A stretch of DNA of 64,000 nucleotides, from the IMG/VR virus record IMGVR_UViG_3300022893_000001, positions 1 through 64,000 of that record; one strand, 5' to 3'. The notes beneath the pieces were generated by a model. That model saw nothing but the letters and a program-made list of their open reading frames with translations. It was not told the origin of the DNA and made no database searches. The translations under genes and the position numbers were made by a program. This DNA comes from a virus. Its lineage: Duplodnaviria; Caudoviricetes. Shown here piece by piece: positions 22,744 to 34,866 of the stretch (the stretch's first letter is position 1; the number at the start of each line of letters is the position of its first letter).

Positions 22744-25700
22744 ATGGCAGCGCCATCCCTAGCAGCCCCCAAAGGCTTCGATCTCGACGGAGCACGCCGG
22801 GAGGGTTACAACGATACCGAGATCGCGGACTACCTCGCCGGCTCGCGGGGCTTCGATATTGCCGGGGCGCGCAAAGAAGGCTATTCCGATCAAGAGATAA
22901 TCGGGCACCTCAACAAGCCGAAAGCGATGGCGTCGACCGTGCCTGGGGCCGAGCGCACCGGCACGCCTGGTCTGCAGAAGACGGCGGCGATCCCGCCCGA
23001 GCTCGGCGGGCCTCCCACGCCCAGGCAGGAACCTCAGCAGCCTACCCCGATGGCACCGCCCGACTATTCGGCGGGCGATCTCTACCAATCCAATCAGCCT
23101 ACCGACCTTGGTTTCGAGCCAACCGTGGACCCCTTCTCAACAGGTCCAGCGCGCGCGCCTCGTCCTCAGATGACCCAGCAAGCCGCTGGCGACGAGATGA
23201 CCCGCGTGGCGCGCGGGGACGTGGGAGCATCGCCCTATCCGAAGCCAGGCCGCTTGCCGATCCTCGGCGGGCGAGTGGCCCCCAAGCCTTTCTACCAGCT
23301 TGAGAAGCCCGGTGTCGCGGGCATCCCCGGCACCGAGCGCACCGGGTTGCCCGGCGTCCAATCAGTGGCCCAACCGCGAGTGGAGTATGACCCGCTCGGC
23401 GCGCGCCCAGACGCGCAGTATTTAGCCAAGCTGCACGCCGGTATCCCGGTCGAATCCGACGAGATCCCCAGTGCCCAGTCGATGCCAGGCGCGGCCGGGC
23501 TGATCTCGAAAGTCGGTTCACGCAGCGCACTGGGAGTGGTTAAATCGCTGGGCACCTCCGGGAGACTTCTCGGCGACACGCCCGGCCAGCGCGGCATGAT
23601 CGGGCTGAAACAAGCGGGCACAGCCATCGAGGACGTCACGCAACTGATGCTCGATCAGATCCCGCCGCCTACCCTGGAAGAATCCCACCTGATCGGCAGC
23701 AAGAACTTCGTTGAGGATCCGAACCAGCTTCGCAATCCCTATTACATGGCGAACCTGGGAGCCAATGCCGGCGGCTCGATGGTGGCCTTCATGCTGCCGG
23801 AAATTGCGCTCTTCCGAGGCGCTGCCTTGGCGGCTACCGGCGCGCGCGCTGGCGTGCTCTCTTCGATTGCCGAGACGATGGCGAACTCGGCAGAGGTCTA
23901 CCAACAGGCCAAAGACGCGGGCATGAGCGAGATCGAAGCCGCTGACCTGTTCCGCAAGAACATCCCCCTCGATTTCCCGATCACCTACGGGATGAACCGG
24001 CTGGGGATCTTCAACGACAAGCTCAAGAGCAGAACGGCTCGCGCGGTTCTCAGCCCGGTCACCGAAGCCGCGCAGGAAGTGGGTCAGGCGGTTCCCCAGA
24101 ACTACTTACTCAAGCAGCCGCTCTTCAAGGGATGGGAAGAGAACGCCCTCGGCTCCGCGTTCGGCGGTCCAGTCGGGGCGATGATGAGCCCGGTCGACAC
24201 TTTGATGGGCGCACCGCCCACGCCGCACCACGACACCACGCAGTACCAACCTGGCCCGCAGGGCCCGCAAACCTCCAGGTACCCGCTGTTAAGCCAGGCT
24301 GGAACAGCGGCCCCCGTCGTTCCGCCCTCGGCCCCGCACCACGAGCTTCCCCCGGACCCATACGAAGGGCCCCTCGACGCCTACGGCGGCGGCGCGGCCC
24401 GAGAAGCGCCAGCGGTCCCCACGGTGTCTCCCTTCCCACGGGTTCAGACTCCCCCGCCTGGCGTCGACCTGGGCCATGTGCGGCCGCTCGACAAGGAAGG
24501 GGAGAAGCCGCCAGAGCAGACTGCGCCGCCGGAACAGAAGCAACCTCCTCCGCCGCCCCCGAATGTGGACGCGGTCTACGAGGACGCGAAGACCTTCGCC
24601 GCGGATCTTCCGGAGCTCGGCGTAGGCGCGATCCGCCGGCAGTTCGGCGTCACCAAGGACGATGCCCGCGTGATCCTCGACCGCATGGTCGCAGACGGGC
24701 TCTTCGCGCAGAAGGAATTGAAGGGCGGCGGCACCTCGTTCGTCAACCTCGCCTGGCAGCGCGGCCAGGCCGGCAAGGGGATGGTGACCAAGGGCAAAGG
24801 CGTTGAGGAAGCTGTCTCCGAGTTCCTTCCGCCGGATGAGGAAGAGGAGGCTCCGCCGCCAGGCCAGCAAGCCCCGCCCCCCGGCCAGCCGCCGCCCTCA
24901 TCGCTTGAAGATCAACGAAAGGAGGGGGAAGAACAGAGACAACAAGAGCCGCCAGCATTGGGGCAGGCACCTCCGCCTGCCACAGCGGCCCCTCCCCAGA
25001 TCGACGCGGGCAAGGTCACCTCGATTGAGGAGCGCCCCGAGCGGCCACCCGAGCCCCGGCTCGCCGAAGACGTATTCGAGATGGATCCGAATACCATCGA
25101 GGCCGATCCGGTTCGCTTCCAGTTCAAACGGGATACCGGCGGCAAGGCTGGAGTAGGCGATGAACTGAAAGACCCAGACGTCCCCTGGAACCGCCGGATG
25201 GCCGGCACAATCACCGTCTGGAAAGACCCGGCAGACGGCAAGACCTACGTCGTCAACGGGCACCACCGGCTTGAGAAAGCCCAGCGCATGGGCGTTCCCA
25301 GTATCAAAGTGCAGTATTCCACTGCAAAAACGGCCCAGGAAGCCAGGGCCGAGGGCGCGCTCGACAACATCGCCGAGGGCAGAGGCACCGCCATCGACGC
25401 GGCCAAGTTCCTGCGCGACACCGGCATCACTCCCGAGGAAGCCAAGGGGCGCGGCGTTCACCTCAAAGGCGAAAAGGCCAGGCAGGGTACCGCGCTCGCC
25501 AAGCTGCCAGACAGGCTCTTCGAACAGATCCTGAGCGGAGACTTGAACGTCGAACGGGCCACGATTATCGGCGAAGGGCTCACCAATCCGGACGACATGC
25601 TGGCAGTGGCAGAGGCCGGCTCGAAGATGAACGACGCCCAGTTGCGGGAACTCATCCGGCGTCAGAGCGGCCGAGCTCGAACCGAAGAGACTCAGGTTTC

Positions 25701-28700
25701 CCTGTTCGGGGAAGACGTCATCTCGAAGAGTCTGATCCGCGAAGAGGCCACGCTGTCGGAAGCCATCCGGAAGCAACTCTCGAACGAGAAGCGGCTGTTC
25801 GCCACAGTCGGAACCAAGGGCGCAGCGACGACGCTTGAACAGGGCGGGAACGTCATCGCTACCGACAAGAACCGCGCCATCGCCGATGCCGCCGCGCAGG
25901 CTCTGGAGATCTATGACCGTCTGAGTCTACAGACTGGTCCGGTTGCCGATGCCTTAGCCGCCGGGGCCAAGGAGATGGCCGGCGGCGCGAACTTTGCTAC
26001 CGTCAGGGAGAACACTTATGCCGCAGTCCGAAACGCCGTACAGGAAGCTATCGGCGGAGGAAAAGAATCGCGTGCTGGACAGCCTCAGGCGCAAGATCGA
26101 GGCCGGGACGCTGGTACCGGAGAACGAGCACCCGCCGGCCCAGCAAAAGCAGCCCCCGCAAAAGTAGAGGAGATCGGCAAGGTCACCTCGGTCGAGCAGG
26201 GCGAGACATTCACCGCGCGGATGCAAGCCGCCGAGACTGCCGATGAGGGGCGGAAGATCCTGGGCGAGGCCGAGAAGGCCATTGGTAGCCTGCAGCAGGA
26301 CATTGGCGTCACGCCTACAGTTGGACAGGTCGAGCCGAATTACTTTGTAGGGCTCCACGTTCTTAACGACAAAACCATCAAGAAGGCGGTCAAAGAGGCC
26401 CAGGCCAAAGATCCGGCCAAGGCGGCGCAACTCGAAGCCATGATGCGCGACGCCTTCCACGCTCGCGAGAAGGAATGGCCGCGCCTCCAGGGCATCGAGG
26501 ACCAGAGGGAAGCGGATCGCTACGAGGAATTCAAGGCCCAGCGAGGACCGAAACTCCCGAAGGAACTGACCAAAGCCGCCCCGCGCTACGGCGCATTCGA
26601 ACTCCAGTTTGAGTCCGATGTTGACAAGGCTGCGTACATCACAGCCCAGGCGAAACCCTCCAAGCGGGATGCCGACTATCTCAAATTTGTGATGGACGCC
26701 ACCGGCAAGTCGGAGGCCGAGGTCCGGAAGGCAGGAGCCGCCATCCGCGCCTCCCTCAAGACGATAGCGAAGGGCGCTGATCCCGCCGATGGCCCGCTTG
26801 AGGTTCCTCTTCATGTCCAGGTGAAACCGGGCGAGGACTTGGGCCGCGTCTCCTCCGTAGAGGCGAAGCCGAAGCAGACCGGCCCCATGAGCCCGCTCGG
26901 CAAGATGGGGCCGGCCAAACCGAAAGCGGCGGTCTACCACGGGGACGTCTCCGACCGGGAAATCACCGAGGAGAATCTCAAGAACGACGTTGAGACGGGC
27001 GTCTGGCGCTTCGCCACCGCGCGCGGGCGCACCGGCAAGGGCCGCACCGGCACGGTCTACACCAACCAGGCGGGGATGCGCGTCCTGCAAAACGTCTTCG
27101 AGATGGAACGGCTTGAGGGCGTCTCGATGGACGACGTCAATGTCGCCAAGCTGCTCACCGCCCTCGACAAGAATCTCAGTCTGAGGGATCTGAGTCCGGA
27201 AGGCCGCGCCGCCCTGAGGGAGTTCAAGAAGAATCTGAACGAGTACCGGCAGCAGCATGGGCCCGGCGCATCCATCAGCTTTGTTGTGGCCGAGCGCGGC
27301 CACGGCATGGGCATCCGCAAGACGATCCGCGAGGAACTGATTCACGGCATTCAGCGCATCTTCGGGATTAACTCCGTGGACACCGTCGAAAACATGCTGC
27401 TGATGCCGGCCTTTGACAAGGCGTGGACGTGGCTGGAAGAAAACGGGTACCCAGATATAGGGGCGATGGACGCTCTCGACGAGATTACCGCCAAGGTGCT
27501 CGCCGGGGAGGATGTAGGGCTTACCCTGGAAGAGCAGCTTACGGTAGCCAAAGCCTACCGAAAGGCGCTGATCGAAGCACACGGTAACGACGTAGTCACA
27601 CTGTTCCGATACGTCAAAGCCGGCGAGGTGAAGGAGACATTCCGTGGCACAGAGACGCGAAAAGAAGATGGTGGACGCGCCGCCCCAGTTCAGCAAGAAA
27701 GCGGTTTCGAACTTCAACGAGGCGCAGTTAGCGGCCGAGGCGGCACGGTTAGCCGGGGAGGACGAGGAGAAGGCGTTCGAGAACGCCTTACGCTCTCGGT
27801 GGAGCCAGTCGGGCGAATCACCCGATTCCTCCGAAGACTCCACGGCGGGTCGCAAGCCCAGTTAGTTCAGGCGTCCAACGGCAAATACTACGTCGTCAAG
27901 TTCGCCGACAACCCGCAGGACGCGCGGGTTCCCGTCAACGAACTGATAGCCGGGCGTCTCTTCCACGCGCTTGGCTTCAAGACCCCGCTGCCGGTGGTTC
28001 TCGAATATGGCGGGGACCAGGATCTGTCCTACGTCTGGCACGGCGGGAAGGAACTGAAGATCAAGGCCGGCCCGGCAATCGCCACCGAGTTCGTCGTCGA
28101 CCCCGAGCGCGGCGGCAAGGTCTATGACGAACTGCGGGACAGCGACTTCTCCAAGGTGACCAACGTTTCCGACCTGGTCAATGCCCTGGTGGTCGACAAG
28201 TGGCTCGCCAACTGGGACTCGCGCCAGGCAGTCTTCCACGCAGACAGTTCCGGCGAAGGCTATGTCGTCACGCTGATCGATCACGGCTTCGTCTTCAACG
28301 GCGATAGTTGGCAGTTCAAGACCAACGCTTGGTCCGGTGTGTACCACCAGCAGAACGTCTACGATGGCGTCCGGTCGATGGACGACTTTGCCCCCACCAT
28401 CGAAAAGATCCGGAAGCTCGATCCGGATTACATCCGTAGCATGTTTGAGGCGGTCCCGGAAGAGTACAAGGAATTCGCCGATGACGAAGACCGGGGGCAT
28501 CTGGCCGATGAAGTAATCAAACGCCGCGCCAAGCTCGAAGACTTCATCCTCGAACTCACTAACGTCAAATTCGGCCAGTTCACATTCAACAACTGGGAAG
28601 GTCACAAGGCGCGGAGGCCCGGCCAGGGGTTGCTGTTCTCGCGCAAGAAGAACACGATTCAGGGCGAGCAGAGTCAACTTGGGTTGTTCGACCTGGCCGC

Positions 28701-31700
28701 GACAGCCGCGACAGGCCAGGTCCAGCATGTAACCGCCGAGGGGCTCACCAAGCCCGAAGCGCGCGAGACGGTCGCCTGGCTTGAGAAGGCCGATCTGCCT
28801 GGCTCGGTCGAAGCGGCCAAGGTTCTCGAAGCGGCTGTAGCGGATGCGCCGGCCAAGGAACCCGTCAAGTTTGAGACGACCGAGGCTCCTGCCGAGACGA
28901 AGGAGCCCGCTGCCGAGACGGGGAAACGGGGCGAGCAGACCCGCATCGAGATGGAGGAGCAGCCCGACAACGAGGCGATCCTCCAGGGCGAGCGCCTCAC
29001 CGCGGCGTTTGCCGGGGAGCTCTCGCCGGAAGAGAAGCGCCGGAAGCTGAAGCGGGCCGAGGTCGAACAGACCGGGCTCTTCGAGACGAGCGAGGAGAGG
29101 GTAGAGCGTCCTGGGCTGCTGTTCCGCCGGGACGACCGGAAGACCACCAGCGCCCGGGCCATCAAATACCTGGCAGACCTGGCGAGCGGCAAGGTCAAAC
29201 CCAACTGGTCCCATGCCTACGAGGCGGTGACCCGGCTCATCACCTCGGCCAAGTCCAAGGAATACAACTCGCCCGATCTGCTCGTCACCGGCCAGGGCTT
29301 CGAGAAGAAAGCAGACGGCACCTGGAAGAACCCGGAAGCCATCAAGCGGGCCGTCAACCTGATCAAGAACTATGCGAACTTCGACGGCAAGAAGTACGCG
29401 AACGACGAGGCGCGCATCGAGGCTTTCGTAGAGCACGTCAAAGAGAACCTGATCTGGCTGTACAAGAAGTACGAGGCGCAGCACGGCGATCTGATCAAGC
29501 GGGCCAAGCAGTGGTACGACGGAGGCCGGAAGCTCGCCGAACGCTACGCCAAGGTGGCCGGCGTCGAACCGCACCAGATGAGCGCGGTGATCGCGGTCCT
29601 CTCGCCGAAGAAGGATTGGTTTCAGAACATAGACCTGGCGCGGCGCATCGCCGATTTCTGGGCGATCCGCCACAAAGTGAAGTGGAACGCCCCGGCGATG
29701 GAAAAGGGCTACGCCAAGATGCTCAAGTCCAAAGCCGAGATGGACGAGGACACTCGGAAGAAGACGGAGAAGCGGAACAAGGTCAGGCGGGCCAGGCTCA
29801 ACGCCAAGAATTCCAGAGGGAGGAAGAAGGCTAGGGAAACGGGCGTGGCCTTCGAGGCGGCGGTCTTCGAAGCCGAGGTTTTCACCCCGAGCCGCGACCT
29901 GCAGAAAGCGTACGCGCGCATCCGAGGGAAGGCGTTCGCCGAGATCAAGCGGCCCTATGACCGCGCGGTCTGGATGCGAATGTGGGACGAGGGCCACCAC
30001 AGCCGGAACTACAACGTCCTGACGCCCGAGGGCGAGTCGCAGGGCGTCGCAACCTCGACCGCCGAGAAGACCAAGGGCAAACCCCTGACGTCGGTCTGGC
30101 AGAGTTACGACGCCGTCACCAAGGCGCTCTCGATCCTCGATGACGGCTCGATGAAGAACATCAGCGCCAAGCTGGGCAAGCAGCACAAGGTGCGGTCCTT
30201 CTACAACAACATCGTCGATCCGGACTCGCCGAACCTCCACGTCACCATCGACACCCACGCGGTGGCGGCGGGCTTCCTGCGGCCGCTCGGCCAGTGGGAC
30301 AAGGAGGTCAAGGACAATCTCAACGCGCCCTCCAAGGTGAGCGGCGAATCGCCCACCTACGGTCTGGTGGCGCGGGCCTACCGGGAAGCGGCGGCGGAGA
30401 TGGGACTCCTGCCGCGCGAATTCCAGTCCATCACCTGGGAAGCGGTGCGCGGGCTGTTCTCGCCGTCGTTCAAAAAGGGTAATAAAACTGTCATAAAGAA
30501 CATCTGGATCGATGTTGCGCAAGGTAAAATTACAGCAGCAGCAGCGAGAGAGAAGATCTATGGCCTTGCAGGAAAAATCGATAGACCGGCATGGGCTGGA
30601 GCAATACCGGGACGAGTTTCCGATACTCGAACAGATGTTGGACGACAAGCTGCCGCTGACACGAAGGCAGTACCTGGGCATGGCGCACCCCGGAGCGGAT
30701 CCGAACGTGCCGCTGGACATGGAACTGGAGGCGGAACTGCCGCCGCCGTTCGTGCACCCGAGTCTAAAAGAGGAACTGAACCCCGACGAGGAGTAGGGAC
30801 CGTCCAGCGGGCCCTCGGCTTTGGTCCCGGCGGCGTCTGGGGCACTCCCAACGACTGGGTCGAACGCTCGGCCTTCAAATTCGCCACCAAACCCAGTCAG
30901 ACCGGCTCGGTCTATGCGAACCGATCCGCGATGAATCTCATCGGGTATGTCATCAGGGACACCAAGACCACCGGGGCTTCTTTCGGTTCTCAGACAATCC
31001 AGATTCTCCTCGACGCCCTCGACGGCAAGCCCGTCCCCGCTGCCAAGTGGGAGAAGCTCAACCTCAACGACCTGTCTGCCAATGCGCACAAGGAACTGGC
31101 GAAGTTCCGCGCACAGATCGTCAACTGGAAGAACACGATCCAGGCCGCTGATCCCCAGGCTTCGCTGAACTTCGTGCTGGCGTCTCCAGCCGAGACGATG
31201 GAGTACGTCAAGGAGACGGCGAGCGAAGAGTACATACACGGGGCCCAGCGCCACTCCCCGGTTGGTATGCCGGCCCTCGTGGGGATGATGAAGACCGCGC
31301 CCTTCCAGAGCGGCTGGAAGCGTCTGATCCAGATTGGCTACGACGTCTCGATTGACCCGGCTGACAGCATACAGGACATCCATAGGAAAGCCATCGAGGC
31401 TTTCAACGAAGTCACCGCCAAGGTGCTCAGTGGGCAGGAGCTCGGTCTGTCGCTGGCCGAGCGCATCGAGATCGCCAAAGCCTACCGGAAGGCGCTCATC
31501 AACTTCCACGGCAGCGACACCGTCCTCCTCCGGTTCAAGTACGTCAAAGCGGGGGCGGTGAGGGACGCCTTCTTTGATAAGCAGCCTGCGGCGACCGCCG
31601 CGCCCGTGCCCGCTGCCGCTACGACGCCGCCGTCGAACTTCCTCAGTTGGGTGCGCCAGGCGGCGGGGATTGCGCCCCGAATTGAGGAGCGCCAGGCACC

Positions 31701-34700
31701 GGCCCGGCGGATCGAGGAACGTGAACAGACCGAGACGGCCCCGGATGTAATGAAGGCTCGCCGGCCCCCGCAGCAGCCGCAGCAGCCCGCTACCCAGGCG
31801 GTCACCACCACCACGCAGCCGCCGGCTACCGGAGCCGCCGCGCCCGCGATGTCCCGCTCGGCGCGCTTCGACCAACTCAACGAGACGGTAGACCAGACCG
31901 GCAAGGAGCGGGACAAGACCCGGTACGAGAAGTTCAAGGAGTCGCTGACGACCTTCGGCCACTCGATGACGCGCCAGTTCGTCGACATCCCGGCCGGCGC
32001 GACCTACGCCAGTTTCAAGCAGAAGCTGAACTTCGTATCGAAGGCGCAGGGCACCGCCATCCACAAAGCCGCCCAGGCCATCATCGACCAACTCGAGAAG
32101 CTCTCCCCGGCGCAGTACGACGCTTTCGTTCGCGTCATCTTCTACGACGATCTCTCCGCGCGCGTCAAACAGCAGATCGCGGAGGGTACGCCTGTCCTCG
32201 ACAAGGACATTGGCTGGGGCATCAAGGACTCACACGAGCTCTACGCCATGCGGGCCGAGGCGCGCGACCGGGTCCGGAACGATCCACAGATCGTCGAAGC
32301 CCTCCGCCAGCGCAAGGCCATGTGGGCGAAGATCAAGCCCGAGTACATCGCCGCCATGAAGAAGGCGGGCGTCGATATCGAGAAAGCCCTCTCGCGCAAA
32401 GACTACTTCCGCCATCGTGTGATCGAGCATCTCCAAGCCCAGGAGTTACCTGGGAACGAGGGGACCGGAGCCGGCCAGCGGTTCAAGCTGCCCACCGGCC
32501 GATCCTGGCTCAAGAAGGCGCACGTCAACGCCAAGGCGTACTCCATCGACTACATTCGCGCCGAGTTCGAAGTACTCAGCGAGATGATGTACGACACCGA
32601 GAGGGCCGGATTCATCGGCTGGTTGAAGCACGACAGCGGCCACAACATCGCCCCGCGGCTAATGCGCCAGGCGGCGGCGCATAACAAGAAAGTCATCATG
32701 CCGACCTTCGTCAAGATGGCGAAGTATTACAACAAGAAGAATCCCCGCGCGACCCCGGTGACCGCCGAGATGATGTACCAGCGCGTCATGAAGTCGCGCC
32801 CGAATGACCCAGGTTGGCGCACGCGCGTCACCAAGCGGATGGCCGGCGCGGATTACATCGGGAGCCTGGAGAAGGCATACAATACGTTCGCTCTCAAGAC
32901 CCACCAGATCTATACGGCGGATAAGCGGGACCACTTCTTCTTTAAGCCCACGATCTCAGACGCGCTCGCCAATGCCATCGAGGCGGCGGGCATGGGTACG
33001 GTCCTCGCCAATCAGATCCAGAAGCTCAAGGTCAAGGGCAAGCGCCGGGGGCAGATGGTCCTGCCGCGTGAAGTCATCGAAACGATGAAAGAGTTCATGC
33101 AGCCCCCGTCCGACAAGACGAGTAAGTGGACCGAGAAGCTCTGGACGAAGCCTATGGGCTGGTGGAAGCAGTCTAAGCTGATCCATCCCGTCTCGGTGGT
33201 CAAGTACAACCTCAGGAACCTGTCGGGCGATCTGGAGCGCGTGGTGATCGCCAACCCGAAAGCACTCAAGATGGTTGGGCGGTCCACAATGGAGATCCGC
33301 CAGTTCCTCAAGACCGGCAAGCCGCCGTCGAAGGAGTTCGAGGCATGGTGGCGGCGCGGCGGCATGGACGCAAACCTCCAGGTAGCCGAGATCGGGGACG
33401 TCAACAAACTCAGAAAGCTCAAGCACCTCAGAGAGGACTTCCGCTCGACCAGCACGGCGGATAAGGGAATAGACTACGCCGTCGATAAGTGGGAGCGCGT
33501 CTGGGGCAAAACGCGACAGTTGACCGATTTCCGCGAAGGGATTTTGCGCTACGCCACGTTCCTCGAATATCAACGCCAGATCGCCGCGAATGCCGGCGGG
33601 CGTCCGGATAACTTTGGAGCCTCGCTCCGCGACGAAGTCATGGCGATCCGGAACCATGATGACCGGGCCTACAAACTATCGAATGATCTGATGCTCGCCT
33701 ACGACGAGGTGTCTGCGCTCGGCCAGAGACTCCGCCGGAACTGGGTTCCCTTCTGGAGCTTCCAAGAAAAGAACGCCCAGGCATACAAGCGGCTCGTGGG
33801 CAACGCCGTCGCGGATGGCAGAACCTCGGCGGCGATAGGCTACGCCGCACTCGGAGGCGCTGCCGTGGCGGCGCGCGTGGGTGTCTATACAGCCGCCAAG
33901 GTGGGCAAGACGCTCACACTGGCGCTGGCGCTCAAGACCCTGAGCGAACTGTGGAACAACTACGTCTTCGACGATGAGGAAGACGACCTCCCGGAGAACG
34001 TCAGGAAGAGTTCGCATATCATCCTGGGCCGGGACGCAAATGGCAAAGTGCTGGCCTTCACGCGCGTGGGCACCTCGGACGATCTGCTCGAATGGGGCGG
34101 GCTCGAAGCCGCGCCGTACTACGTGCGCGAGTACCTCAACGGCCGGATGAGCTACGAGGATCTGGCTAAGGAGATCGCCTTCCGACCCTTCGGCGTCCCG
34201 ATTCCGCTCAAGCCGGCGTTCAACAAGATCGCCCAGTCGATCACGCCGTTCATCAAGACGACCGCTGAACTGGCGAGCGGGCGCGCCTGGTTCCCGAACT
34301 TCTTTGAACAGCGCGAGATTCGCAGCCGGGGCGAGTACATCGCCCGCGAGCTCGGTGTGACCGCCCTCTACAAAGCCGCGTGGAGTAAGCCGCAGCCCAA
34401 GGTCTTCTCGGTCGACAAGCTGCTCGACCTCTTCGTATATCGGTACGATCCCGGCGAAACACACTACAACGCTTTCAAATACGATAAGGTCGCAAAATGG
34501 GGGGCCGAACATGGCGAAGATCCCGGCGGCGGGCTCTCGCAGAAGAAAGCGGCCCAGGCGCTCTATGACATCCGCATGGCTATCCGGTATGACGACGAGC
34601 GGGCCCAGGCGGCGGCGCTCATCGCCTACAAAGAAGTCGGCGGCACCAGGGCGAATCTCAAAGAATCGATTGATCGCCTGCACCCGCTCGGGAGCCTCAA

Positions 34701-34866
34701 GAAATCCCTGCGCGACGAGTACAAGAAGTCTCTGAGCCCCGCCGAAGCGATCCAACTGCAGAAGGCGGAACTATTCTGGGTTGAGAACTTCCAGTCCAAG
34801 TGGAAGGCGCTCGACCGGGCCGCTGCGGCCGCGAAGCTGCCCGATAAGAAAGTGAGGAAGAAGTAA
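22744..34866 (+). CDS. Giant polyvalent virion-associated protein (4040 aa): ParB-like, zincin-like x2, HipA-like kinase, HhH-glycosylase-like, LPD38-like
   Basis: 12.1-kb open frame; YVVNGHHR (25246-25269); REELIHG (27328) and SEEYIHG (31222); GGSQA/YVVKF/NELIA/DKWLANWDSR/LIDHG (about 27800-28290); WY..SP..W..N..K..SF..NI..VTIDTHA..QSITW (about 29500-30440); DDLPENVRKSSHIILGRD near C-terminus. Confidence 0.85.
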   Translation: MAAPSLAAPKGFDLDGARREGYNDTEIADYLAGSRGFDIAGARKEGYSDQEIIGHLNKPKAMASTVPGAERTGTPGLQKTAAIPPELGGPPTPRQEPQQPTPMAPPDYSAGDLYQSNQPTDLGFEPTVDPFSTGPARAPRPQMTQQAAGDEMTRVARGDVGASPYPKPGRLPILGGRVAPKPFYQLEKPGVAGIPGTERTGLPGVQSVAQPRVEYDPLGARPDAQYLAKLHAGIPVESDEIPSAQSMPGAAGLISKVGSRSALGVVKSLGTSGRLLGDTPGQRGMIGLKQAGTAIEDVTQLMLDQIPPPTLEESHLIGSKNFVEDPNQLRNPYYMANLGANAGGSMVAFMLPEIALFRGAALAATGARAGVLSSIAETMANSAEVYQQAKDAGMSEIEAADLFRKNIPLDFPITYGMNRLGIFNDKLKSRTARAVLSPVTEAAQEVGQAVPQNYLLKQPLFKGWEENALGSAFGGPVGAMMSPVDTLMGAPPTPHHDTTQYQPGPQGPQTSRYPLLSQAGTAAPVVPPSAPHHELPPDPYEGPLDAYGGGAAREAPAVPTVSPFPRVQTPPPGVDLGHVRPLDKEGEKPPEQTAPPEQKQPPPPPPNVDAVYEDAKTFAADLPELGVGAIRRQFGVTKDDARVILDRMVADGLFAQKELKGGGTSFVNLAWQRGQAGKGMVTKGKGVEEAVSEFLPPDEEEEAPPPGQQAPPPGQPPPSSLEDQRKEGEEQRQQEPPALGQAPPPATAAPPQIDAGKVTSIEERPERPPEPRLAEDVFEMDPNTIEADPVRFQFKRDTGGKAGVGDELKDPDVPWNRRMAGTITVWKDPADGKTYVVNGHHRLEKAQRMGVPSIKVQYSTAKTAQEARAEGALDNIAEGRGTAIDAAKFLRDTGITPEEAKGRGVHLKGEKARQGTALAKLPDRLFEQILSGDLNVERATIIGEGLTNPDDMLAVAEAGSKMNDAQLRELIRRQSGRARTEETQVSLFGEDVISKSLIREEATLSEAIRKQLSNEKRLFATVGTKGAATTLEQGGNVIATDKNRAIADAAAQALEIYDRLSLQTGPVADALAAGAKEMAGGANFATVRENTYAAVRNAVQEAIGGGKESRAGQPQAQDRGRDAGTGERAPAGPAKAAPAKVEEIGKVTSVEQGETFTARMQAAETADEGRKILGEAEKAIGSLQQDIGVTPTVGQVEPNYFVGLHVLNDKTIKKAVKEAQAKDPAKAAQLEAMMRDAFHAREKEWPRLQGIEDQREADRYEEFKAQRGPKLPKELTKAAPRYGAFELQFESDVDKAAYITAQAKPSKRDADYLKFVMDATGKSEAEVRKAGAAIRASLKTIAKGADPADGPLEVPLHVQVKPGEDLGRVSSVEAKPKQTGPMSPLGKMGPAKPKAAVYHGDVSDREITEENLKNDVETGVWRFATARGRTGKGRTGTVYTNQAGMRVLQNVFEMERLEGVSMDDVNVAKLLTALDKNLSLRDLSPEGRAALREFKKNLNEYRQQHGPGASISFVVAERGHGMGIRKTIREELIHGIQRIFGINSVDTVENMLLMPAFDKAWTWLEENGYPDIGAMDALDEITAKVLAGEDVGLTLEEQLTVAKAYRKALIEAHGNDVVTLFRYVKAGEVKETFRGTETRKEDGGRAAPVQQESGFELQRGAVSGRGGTVSRGGRGEGVRERLTLSVEPVGRITRFLRRLHGGSQAQLVQASNGKYYVVKFADNPQDARVPVNELIAGRLFHALGFKTPLPVVLEYGGDQDLSYVWHGGKELKIKAGPAIATEFVVDPERGGKVYDELRDSDFSKVTNVSDLVNALVVDKWLANWDSRQAVFHADSSGEGYVVTLIDHGFVFNGDSWQFKTNAWSGVYHQQNVYDGVRSMDDFAPTIEKIRKLDPDYIRSMFEAVPEEYKEFADDEDRGHLADEVIKRRAKLEDFILELTNVKFGQFTFNNWEGHKARRPGQGLLFSRKKNTIQGEQSQLGLFDLAATAATGQVQHVTAEGLTKPEARETVAWLEKADLPGSVEAAKVLEAAVADAPAKEPVKFETTEAPAETKEPAAETGKRGEQTRIEMEEQPDNEAILQGERLTAAFAGELSPEEKRRKLKRAEVEQTGLFETSEERVERPGLLFRRDDRKTTSARAIKYLADLASGKVKPNWSHAYEAVTRLITSAKSKEYNSPDLLVTGQGFEKKADGTWKNPEAIKRAVNLIKNYANFDGKKYANDEARIEAFVEHVKENLIWLYKKYEAQHGDLIKRAKQWYDGGRKLAERYAKVAGVEPHQMSAVIAVLSPKKDWFQNIDLARRIADFWAIRHKVKWNAPAMEKGYAKMLKSKAEMDEDTRKKTEKRNKVRRARLNAKNSRGRKKARETGVAFEAAVFEAEVFTPSRDLQKAYARIRGKAFAEIKRPYDRAVWMRMWDEGHHSRNYNVLTPEGESQGVATSTAEKTKGKPLTSVWQSYDAVTKALSILDDGSMKNISAKLGKQHKVRSFYNNIVDPDSPNLHVTIDTHAVAAGFLRPLGQWDKEVKDNLNAPSKVSGESPTYGLVARAYREAAAEMGLLPREFQSITWEAVRGLFSPSFKKGNKTVIKNIWIDVAQGKITAAAAREKIYGLAGKIDRPAWAGAIPGRVSDTRTDVGRQAAADTKAVPGHGAPRSGSERAAGHGTGGGTAAAVRAPESKRGTEPRRGVGTVQRALGFGPGGVWGTPNDWVERSAFKFATKPSQTGSVYANRSAMNLIGYVIRDTKTTGASFGSQTIQILLDALDGKPVPAAKWEKLNLNDLSANAHKELAKFRAQIVNWKNTIQAADPQASLNFVLASPAETMEYVKETASEEYIHGAQRHSPVGMPALVGMMKTAPFQSGWKRLIQIGYDVSIDPADSIQDIHRKAIEAFNEVTAKVLSGQELGLSLAERIEIAKAYRKALINFHGSDTVLLRFKYVKAGAVRDAFFDKQPAATAAPVPAAATTPPSNFLSWVRQAAGIAPRIEERQAPARRIEEREQTETAPDVMKARRPPQQPQQPATQAVTTTTQPPATGAAAPAMSRSARFDQLNETVDQTGKERDKTRYEKFKESLTTFGHSMTRQFVDIPAGATYASFKQKLNFVSKAQGTAIHKAAQAIIDQLEKLSPAQYDAFVRVIFYDDLSARVKQQIAEGTPVLDKDIGWGIKDSHELYAMRAEARDRVRNDPQIVEALRQRKAMWAKIKPEYIAAMKKAGVDIEKALSRKDYFRHRVIEHLQAQELPGNEGTGAGQRFKLPTGRSWLKKAHVNAKAYSIDYIRAEFEVLSEMMYDTERAGFIGWLKHDSGHNIAPRLMRQAAAHNKKVIMPTFVKMAKYYNKKNPRATPVTAEMMYQRVMKSRPNDPGWRTRVTKRMAGADYIGSLEKAYNTFALKTHQIYTADKRDHFFFKPTISDALANAIEAAGMGTVLANQIQKLKVKGKRRGQMVLPREVIETMKEFMQPPSDKTSKWTEKLWTKPMGWWKQSKLIHPVSVVKYNLRNLSGDLERVVIANPKALKMVGRSTMEIRQFLKTGKPPSKEFEAWWRRGGMDANLQVAEIGDVNKLRKLKHLREDFRSTSTADKGIDYAVDKWERVWGKTRQLTDFREGILRYATFLEYQRQIAANAGGRPDNFGASLRDEVMAIRNHDDRAYKLSNDLMLAYDEVSALGQRLRRNWVPFWSFQEKNAQAYKRLVGNAVADGRTSAAIGYAALGGAAVAARVGVYTAAKVGKTLTLALALKTLSELWNNYVFDDEEDDLPENVRKSSHIILGRDANGKVLAFTRVGTSDDLLEWGGLEAAPYYVREYLNGRMSYEDLAKEIAFRPFGVPIPLKPAFNKIAQSITPFIKTTAELASGRAWFPNFFEQREIRSRGEYIARELGVTALYKAAWSKPQPKVFSVDKLLDLFVYRYDPGETHYNAFKYDKVAKWGAEHGEDPGGGLSQKKAAQALYDIRMAIRYDDERAQAAALIAYKEVGGTRANLKESIDRLHPLGSLKKSLRDEYKKSLSPAEAIQLQKAELFWVENFQSKWKALDRAAAAAKLPDKKVRKK
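26018..26167 (+). CDS. Nested gene 1 (49 aa, +1 frame in giant gene): MPQSETPYRKLSAEEKNRVLDSLRRKIEAGTLVPENEHPPAQQKQPPQK
   Basis: AGGGAG at 26005-26010, 7 nt before ATG; amphipathic helix; G/C-ending codons move to this frame; below the ORF-track length cutoff. Confidence 0.6.
   Translation: MPQSETPYRKLSAEEKNRVLDSLRRKIEAGTLVPENEHPPAQQKQPPQK
27644..27865 (+). CDS. Nested gene 2 (73 aa, +1 frame) directly upstream of and overlapping the kinase domain
   Basis: AAGGAG at 27631-27636, 7 nt before GTG; helical FSKKAVSNFNEAQLAAEAARLAGEDEEKAFENALRSRW; host frame reads as G/R-rich filler. Confidence 0.65.
   Translation: MAQRREKKMVDAPPQFSKKAVSNFNEAQLAAEAARLAGEDEEKAFENALRSRWSQSGESPDSSEDSTAGRKPS
30560..30796 (+). 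CDS. Nested gene 3 (78 aa, +1 frame) right after the glycosylase-like domain
   Basis: GAGAGAG 7 nt before ATG 30560; globular acidic PILEQMLDDKLPLTRRQYLGMAHP..DMELEAELPPPF; host frame is G/A/R filler; AT-rich patch with TAAAAT upstream. Confidence 0.7.
   Translation: MALQEKSIDRHGLEQYRDEFPILEQMLDDKLPLTRRQYLGMAHPGADPNVPLDMELEAELPPPFVHPSLKEELNPDEE

Follow-up and report, generated by a model that had tools for sequence, protein, structure and literature searches.

Overprinting, in which two reading frames of one stretch of DNA are both used, is exemplified by phiX174, where gene E lies in D, gene B lies in A, and the nested gene is the younger frame. The spanin genes of phage lambda provide a second precedent, Rz1 being embedded in the +1 frame of Rz (Kongari et al. 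2018, PMC6139136), and gene fusion has also been discussed there as a route by which embedded spanins originate. Two further points of comparison are the hipBA and hipBST toxin-antitoxin modules, whose features are taken here from Gerdes et al. 2021 (PMC8262856), and the large polyvalent proteins of phages and conjugative elements (Iyer et al. 2017, PMC5512222). The present analysis concerns a small open reading frame (ORF), ORF2, which lies in the +1 frame of a giant gene within the first 64,000 nucleotides of the IMG/VR virus record IMGVR_UViG_3300022893_000001 (Duplodnaviria, Caudoviricetes); this stretch, hereafter the window, covers most of a 72.9-kb, ~99% complete record. Judged from sequence, ORF2 is, with a probability of roughly 0.85-0.9, a genuine, separately initiated gene nested whole in a virion gene. 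No account of genes nested within giant virion genes of phages turned up in a literature search, and the words "overlapping" and "frameshift" do not occur in PMC5512222.

ORF2 occupies nucleotides 27644-27865 of the plus strand and comprises 73 codons, beginning with GTG (27644-27646) and ending with TAG (27863-27865), in the +1 frame of a giant ORF of 4040 codons (22744-34866, plus strand) that encodes a predicted virion or polyvalent-type protein, P0001. Its putative Shine-Dalgarno (SD) sequence, AAGGAG at 27631-27636 of the plus strand, is read as Lys-Glu codons in the host frame and is followed by the 7-nt spacer ACATTCC (27637-27643). The stop codon falls within the start of a kinase domain, to which the Pfam HipA_2 alignment extends from near nucleotide 27826. 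Both the nested frame of 73 codons, with AAGGAG seven nucleotides ahead of GTG, and the placement of its stop inside the first kinase codons had been read from the bare sequence in an earlier note (the original prediction), and both were borne out. The length of ORF2 alone is not beyond chance, because the giant ORF is GC-rich and contains many alternative-frame ORFs of 50-220 codons. What does lie beyond chance is the switch of codon usage between the frames, the purifying selection specific to the nested frame, and the conservation of both the peptide and its nested layout.

Between 27640 and 27790, the GC content at third codon positions (GC3) is 0.40 in the host frame and 0.84 in the ORF2 frame, against 0.8-0.9 for the host frame on either side, while further host-frame dips in GC3 exist along the giant gene. 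Composition is the starting point of an alternative account, in which ORF2 is untranslated and is either the relic of an ancestral linker shifted by compensating indels or an accident of a linker rich in Gly, Arg and Glu. High first-position GC in host segments rich in Gly, Ala, Pro, Glu and Arg automatically raises the apparent GC3 of the +1 frame, other segments such as 24784-25050 do so without conserved +1 peptides, and another +1-frame candidate in the same gene, ORF1 (26018-26167), has no match even in the closest relative of the window. Composition alone, however, leaves the drop of the host frame to 0.40 unexplained, and the pattern of selection also argues against this account. The closest relative is locus L002, from a JGI metagenome, whose giant protein P0002 has 3968 amino acids (L-numbers denote fetched DNA loci). 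Between the window and L002, the ORF2 frame has a ratio of nonsynonymous to synonymous substitution rates (dN/dS) of 0.28, compared with 1.17 for the host frame; when the entire 12-kb gene was scanned, the +1 frame fell below the host frame at the ORF2 stretch only. The corresponding ratio of nonsynonymous to synonymous differences per site (pN/pS) over ORF2 codons 1-53 is 0.30 in the ORF2 frame versus 2.85 in the host frame; over codons 54-73 the values are 0.50 and 0.38, respectively, and past the ORF2 stop the host frame takes over the constraint. Pooled over five phylogenetically separate pairs, pN/pS is 0.42 in the ORF2 frame versus 1.12 in the host frame, with four of the five independent pairs in agreement, a result that an untranslated relic would not produce. 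The host-frame counterpart of ORF2 is a Gly/Arg-rich linker (27643-27825, plus strand), which is open and shows no purifying selection of its own (pN/pS 1.0-2.9).

The ORF2 peptide also has relatives of its own. An exhaustive phmmer search of 1.84 billion representative proteins returned three small proteins of 59-65 amino acids, with 45-52% identity and E values of 1e-8 to 1e-7, and no other credible match; a profile search added three more homologues. About 20 ORF2 loci were fetched, representing ~10 lineages, since several come from the same contigs; several come from viral contigs of ~73 kb. In every fetched locus (L002-L019, L027, L034 and L035), a giant ORF remains open across the homologue, which occupies its +1 frame; within the limits of the contigs, these ORFs measure 430-3700 codons. 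For a given peptide and codon usage, the host frame would stay free of stops by chance with a probability of 0.06-0.22 per locus; it is open in every one, which indicates that both frames are maintained. A frameshift artefact of sequencing or assembly was considered and rejected, the same layout being found in many independent assemblies. ORF2 therefore has what is looked for in an embedded same-strand gene, insofar as sequence can tell: it lies wholly inside a larger ORF, the nested frame is the constrained one, and start signals of its own are present.

Alignment of 13 sequences (alignment A2) places the conserved part of the protein in codons 1-53 (27644-27802, plus strand), where a basic N-terminal tail (RxRK) and an A-P motif precede a core with the motif A-[VI]-x-[NH]-F-N-x-A-Q-[LI]-A-A-E-x-A-R..G.D...AF...L...W, followed by a variable tail; products of the family measure 60-73 amino acids. 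Within the 35-residue core, 17 positions are invariant, and the distant members share 41-59% identity with the ORF2 of the window. The retention of these 17 residues at such divergence, together with the preservation of an own start and stop in all lineages, leaves the untranslated relic or compositional accident very improbable. AlphaFold2 predicts two helices for ORF2, at residues 18-37 and 41-56, with a predicted local distance difference test (pLDDT) score of ~90 over residues 20-50 and disordered ends, so that the model amounts to a plain two-helix hairpin with a basic N-terminal tail. The variable Ser/acidic tail (codons 54-73; 27803-27865, plus strand) is unconserved in alignment A2, is modelled with pLDDT below 50, and corresponds to the 5' end of a kinase cassette read in the +1 frame. 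The earlier suggestion that the Ser-rich tail may only reflect constraint on the kinase frame agrees with these features and with the similar pN/pS of the two frames over these codons. Searches for a known family were negative: ORF2 has no matches in Pfam, PHROGs, NCBIfam or PADLOC and no usable match in the ESM Atlas, and with its 12 relatives it yields nothing but noise in Pfam at E <= 10. A Foldseek search of the hairpin against the PDB likewise gave noise only (E > 4), including rows for VapB and MazE at E 6-9 that were not counted.

The start signals of ORF2 recur across lineages. The arrangement AAGGAG(G), 7 nt, GTG is present in the window and in L002, L003, L005, L008, L009, L010 and L027, and L007 carries AGGGAGG, 7 nt, ATG, in which two bases have changed from GTG and yet both a start codon and an SD sequence are kept. 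The host-frame residue at the position of the start codon varies between Arg, Ser and Tyr. The 60 nt around the ORF2 start have a predicted RNA folding energy of -9.2 kcal/mol, compared with -17.0 +/- 4.7 kcal/mol across the gene, which places them among the weakest 4%, and structure is similarly weak at the start region in L003, L008, L009, L010 and L013. Consistent with the earlier remark that the codons upstream of ORF2 are shifted towards AT, host-frame GC3 over the 35 codons before the GTG is 0.66, versus 0.94 in the paralogous copy ending at 31572; the shift is explained by the weak structure of the ORF2 start region. A promoter scan of 26800-28400 revealed no sigma-70-like site on the plus strand, and ORF2 is therefore probably read from the mRNA of the giant gene. 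Internal initiation on that mRNA is the simplest reading of its expression.

The same signals have to be weighed for a programmed +1 frameshift after AAGGAG, by which ORF2 would be reached from the host frame and a truncated giant protein of ~1630 amino acids, ending in the ORF2 peptide, would be made. In prfB, an SD-like element lies 3 nt ahead of the frameshift site. The geometry here is similar, with the host codons TTC CGT starting 3 nt past an SD-like element; in L007 the slip position reads TTT T and could slip, and the subfamily of L006 and L012 lacks a clear SD for initiation while its +1 frame is open far upstream. The putative slip sites, however, differ by lineage (TTC C, CCA A or TTT T), and most of them cannot re-pair. 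Moreover, the start codon is kept exactly 7 nt past the SD, even through the change from GTG to ATG, although a frameshift would not need a start codon, and in most lineages a +1-frame TGA within the SD region leaves only ~15 nt in which the shift could occur. Frameshifting is accordingly a very improbable route to the ORF2 frame, and initiation at its own start codon is the reading followed here.

The domain that follows ORF2 in the window is a HipA_2-type kinase domain (27826-28620, plus strand), assigned through PF20613 and stand-alone homologues. The direct match to PF20613 (E 1.4e-4; profile positions 4-212 of 240) scores 21.7 bits and is below the cut-off of 27; the 34 stand-alone homologues of ~270 amino acids reach E values down to 1e-31, and PF20613 is found in 33 of them, so that by homology the domain is a member of the HipA_2 kinase family. 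This neighbourhood was the basis of the proposal, in the original prediction, that a hipBA-like module is embedded whole in a structural gene, with ORF2 in the role of a HipB- or HipS-like antitoxin of the adjacent kinase. Several features speak for such a module: ORF2 immediately precedes the kinase and runs into its first codons, the kinase genuinely belongs to the HipA_2 family, and ORF2 is itself a probable gene with a core predicted to fold. The distribution of the two partners points the other way. Among the ORF2-bearing loci, only the window and L002 have the kinase (2 of ~10 lineages). ORF2 is followed by a DUF7178 module in L003, L005, L010, L013 and L027; L007 and L008 have a different, unrelated sequence after it, and L012 and L018 yet another.

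Comparison with the collinear giant genes of L027 and L010 revealed an insertion in the window at P0001 residues ~1681-2059 (nucleotides ~27784-28920), a cassette of ~380 amino acids composed of the kinase and a linker of ~100 amino acids and found in the window and L002 only. Its left edge lies directly after W53, the last conserved residue of ORF2, with the junction at about P0001 residue 1680. The kinase, inserted after codon 53, therefore arrived beside an ORF2 that already existed, and the Ser-rich tail of ORF2 is cassette DNA read in the +1 frame. In seven stand-alone HipA_2 loci, a hidden Markov model (HMM) search found no relative of ORF2 and tblastn gave nothing below E 0.28, and five of the seven have a DUF3037 gene directly downstream of the kinase. 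No match of ORF2 to helix-turn-helix (HTH), HipB, HipS or antitoxin families was obtained in Pfam, NCBIfam or PADLOC, and a kinase search in viral contigs for related loci found none. A dedicated antitoxin of the HipA_2 kinase is thus not supported by the comparisons, because most related phages with ORF2 lack the kinase, and a toxin-antitoxin-like module within the virion gene is very unlikely. Of the original proposal, the nested gene and the HipA_2 kinase stand, while the pairing of the two as toxin and antitoxin falls, since stand-alone kinases lack ORF2 and most ORF2 loci lack the kinase.

Two observations on the kinase itself may be added. The kinase-DUF3037 arrangement (L020, L021, L023, L024 and L025) forms a recurrent two-gene unit that adjoins phage portal genes in three cases, and the DUF3037 gene appears to be the usual neighbour of this branch of HipA_2 kinases. 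Internal re-initiation of the kinase part at the ORF2 stop was also considered and rejected, as no host-frame ATG, GTG or TTG lies near 27863.

The most constant neighbour of ORF2 is instead a domain of ~220 amino acids with the invariant motif EExxHxxQ, located directly upstream in most lineages. In the window, its first copy spans P0001 residues 1395-1634 (26926-27645, plus strand), as delimited by alignment A3 and by tblastn to the loci. All nine viral loci found with this domain carry an ORF2-like gene, which follows the domain directly in eight of the nine. The domain is duplicated within the giant gene, at 26926-27645 and ~30800-31572, with Y..N, EExxHxxQ and E.TAK invariant; no ORF2 follows the second copy, where the host frame is constrained (pN/pS 0.13). 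An AlphaFold model of the domain is confident, with a pLDDT of 80.8; no Pfam family covers the domain, and neither Foldseek nor a wide VIA-align search gave it a significant match. The zincin-like label attached to it in the first reading is putative: the invariant motif is EExxHxxQ and not HExxH; the best Foldseek row to a putative metallopeptidase is weak (E 0.6, TM 0.24), and the best VIA-align score (Z 5.5) is to unrelated helical proteins. From its position, ORF2 could tentatively be regarded as a small protein that acts on one module of the giant protein as its partner, chaperone or inhibitor, most plausibly on this upstream domain, alongside which it would be made as Rz1 is made with Rz.

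Several observations weigh against the interpretation of ORF2 as a nested gene or limit what can be drawn from it. The most diverged pair, L010 and L027, shows no difference between the frames (0.73 vs 0.68), and at deep divergence the pattern across codon positions is not the classical one, with 0.356, 0.265 and 0.355 differences per site at positions 1, 2 and 3. The subfamily formed by L006, L012, L018, L019, L034 and L035 has an ATG and no clear SD, and its members L006, L012, L018 and L019 lack the signal of weak structure at the start; the status of ORF2 is less certain in this subfamily. The family is also confined to one small phage clade, and its loci are not fully independent. In the lineage of L003, L013 and L017, ORF2 does not come after the EExxHxxQ domain; it precedes DUF7178, and the domain lies further on. 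Finally, neither ORF2 nor the upstream domain has a family or fold match, which leaves any specific function without support.

With these points taken into account, ORF2 is best explained as an overprinted gene, translated from its own SD sequence and GTG on the late mRNA of the giant gene, and the host frame over it would be a weakly constrained Gly/Arg-rich linker after the EExxHxxQ domain. By criteria commonly applied to overlapping genes, ORF2 is probably the older frame, because the nested frame has normal codon usage and encodes predicted folded helices, while the host frame is abnormal, Gly/Arg-rich filler. The host linker would then have been laid over ORF2, probably when neighbouring genes fused into the giant ORF. 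Taken as a whole, this explanation is considered highly probable.

Comparison with the known systems delineates how far each precedent applies. As with Rz1 in Rz, a small gene with its own start lies wholly in a larger phage gene, in the +1 frame of the same strand; the overlapped host segment is a flexible linker, and both frames are maintained. The ORF2 protein differs in having neither a lipoprotein signal nor spanin features, and its host is a 4040-aa virion or polyvalent-type protein rather than a lysis protein. Furthermore, a partnership between the nested and host products is only a guess for ORF2, and here it is the nested frame, not the host frame, that has normal codon usage and constraint. 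The locus resembles phiX174 in that two frames of one stretch are both used and one product is short and compositionally odd; in contrast to phiX174, the nested ORF2 would, by its codon usage, be the older frame, with the host linker as the newcomer.

The likeness to hipBA and hipBST consists of a small ORF directly upstream of a HipA-superfamily kinase and overlapping its start. The differences are that the kinase is of the HipA_2 branch, in which stand-alone kinases mostly have a DUF3037 gene downstream as their partner, that ORF2 has no HTH or HipS-like domain, that only two close relatives combine ORF2 with the kinase, and that the kinase is a domain of a virion protein and not a free toxin. 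With the polyvalent proteins, the giant protein shares its multi-domain architecture, the ParB-like and kinase modules shuffled between relatives, and a place in a virion gene block, although the kinase clade described in PMC5512222 is of the Ser/Thr/Tyr type and not HipA_2.

The giant protein comprises a ParB-like region, two EExxHxxQ domains, the kinase, DUF7178 and a conserved C-terminal portion of 1000 amino acids; the ParB-like stretch matches the tail of phrog_21, and phrog_3162 matches the kinase region. Terminase and structural genes lie at the left of the window, and a tail-fibre gene comes after the giant gene. Alignment of the giant genes of the window (22744-34866) and L002 (88-11994) reveals a mosaic of near-identical and diverged blocks, in which 0-6 differences per 240 nt alternate with 60-90 differences, for example at 25000-26500 and 27650-28800, a pattern that suggests recent recombination swapping modules. 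A tblastn search of the region and ORF2 against 50,697 GenBank phage records gave no match, so that no cultured relative was found, and the ORF2 family was not found in 185,579 prokaryote genomes, which yielded no prophage or free-standing copy and no clue to a host. The clade consists of ~73-kb phages that apparently come from soil or rhizosphere metagenomes, and the family, which is unannotated, was encountered solely as a nested gene in their giant genes.

Two other nested frames of the giant gene were considered. ORF3 (30560-30796, plus strand), an acidic product of 78 amino acids in the +1 frame, lies between the DUF7178 module and the second EExxHxxQ domain. By tblastn, the giant ORFs of L010, L013/L017 and L005 also contain it in their +1 frame; identity is 33-44%, the motif is PLTR..YL...P...E.ELP..F.HP, and host-frame GC3 over it falls to 0.28-0.36; these comparisons confirm ORF3 as a second conserved, predicted nested gene. 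ORF1 (26018-26167, plus strand; 49 amino acids) also lies in the +1 frame and shows a GC3 frame switch. It was rejected as a nested gene beside ORF2, as it is unconserved even in L002, where tblastn gave no match, and its host and +1 frames have pN/pS values of 0.78 and 1.14, respectively; this region is probably merely a fast-evolving linker.

The finding bears on how such genomes are annotated and on how giant phage genes arise. In gene-finder output and public annotations, one of the two ORFs appears, giant or small, but never both, and the conserved ORF2 family is therefore invisible in these phages; annotations of short contigs contain the small gene and a truncated giant gene. A small ORF does not become an antitoxin by lying beside a HipA-like kinase, and adjacency is misleading here because the kinase was inserted later. 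As this case illustrates, linkers in giant virion or polyvalent proteins can code in two frames, the nested one being under the constraint, which bears on the origin of giant genes, possibly by fusion across small genes, and on co-expression with injected effector proteins. A more speculative and rather unlikely extension holds that ORF2 and ORF3 are cis-encoded partners, such as chaperones, inhibitors or immunity proteins, for modules of an injected giant polyvalent protein. If this were true, the linkers that separate effector modules in such phages would systematically conceal partner genes in their +1 frame, and the hidden genes would travel with the modules as these are shuffled.

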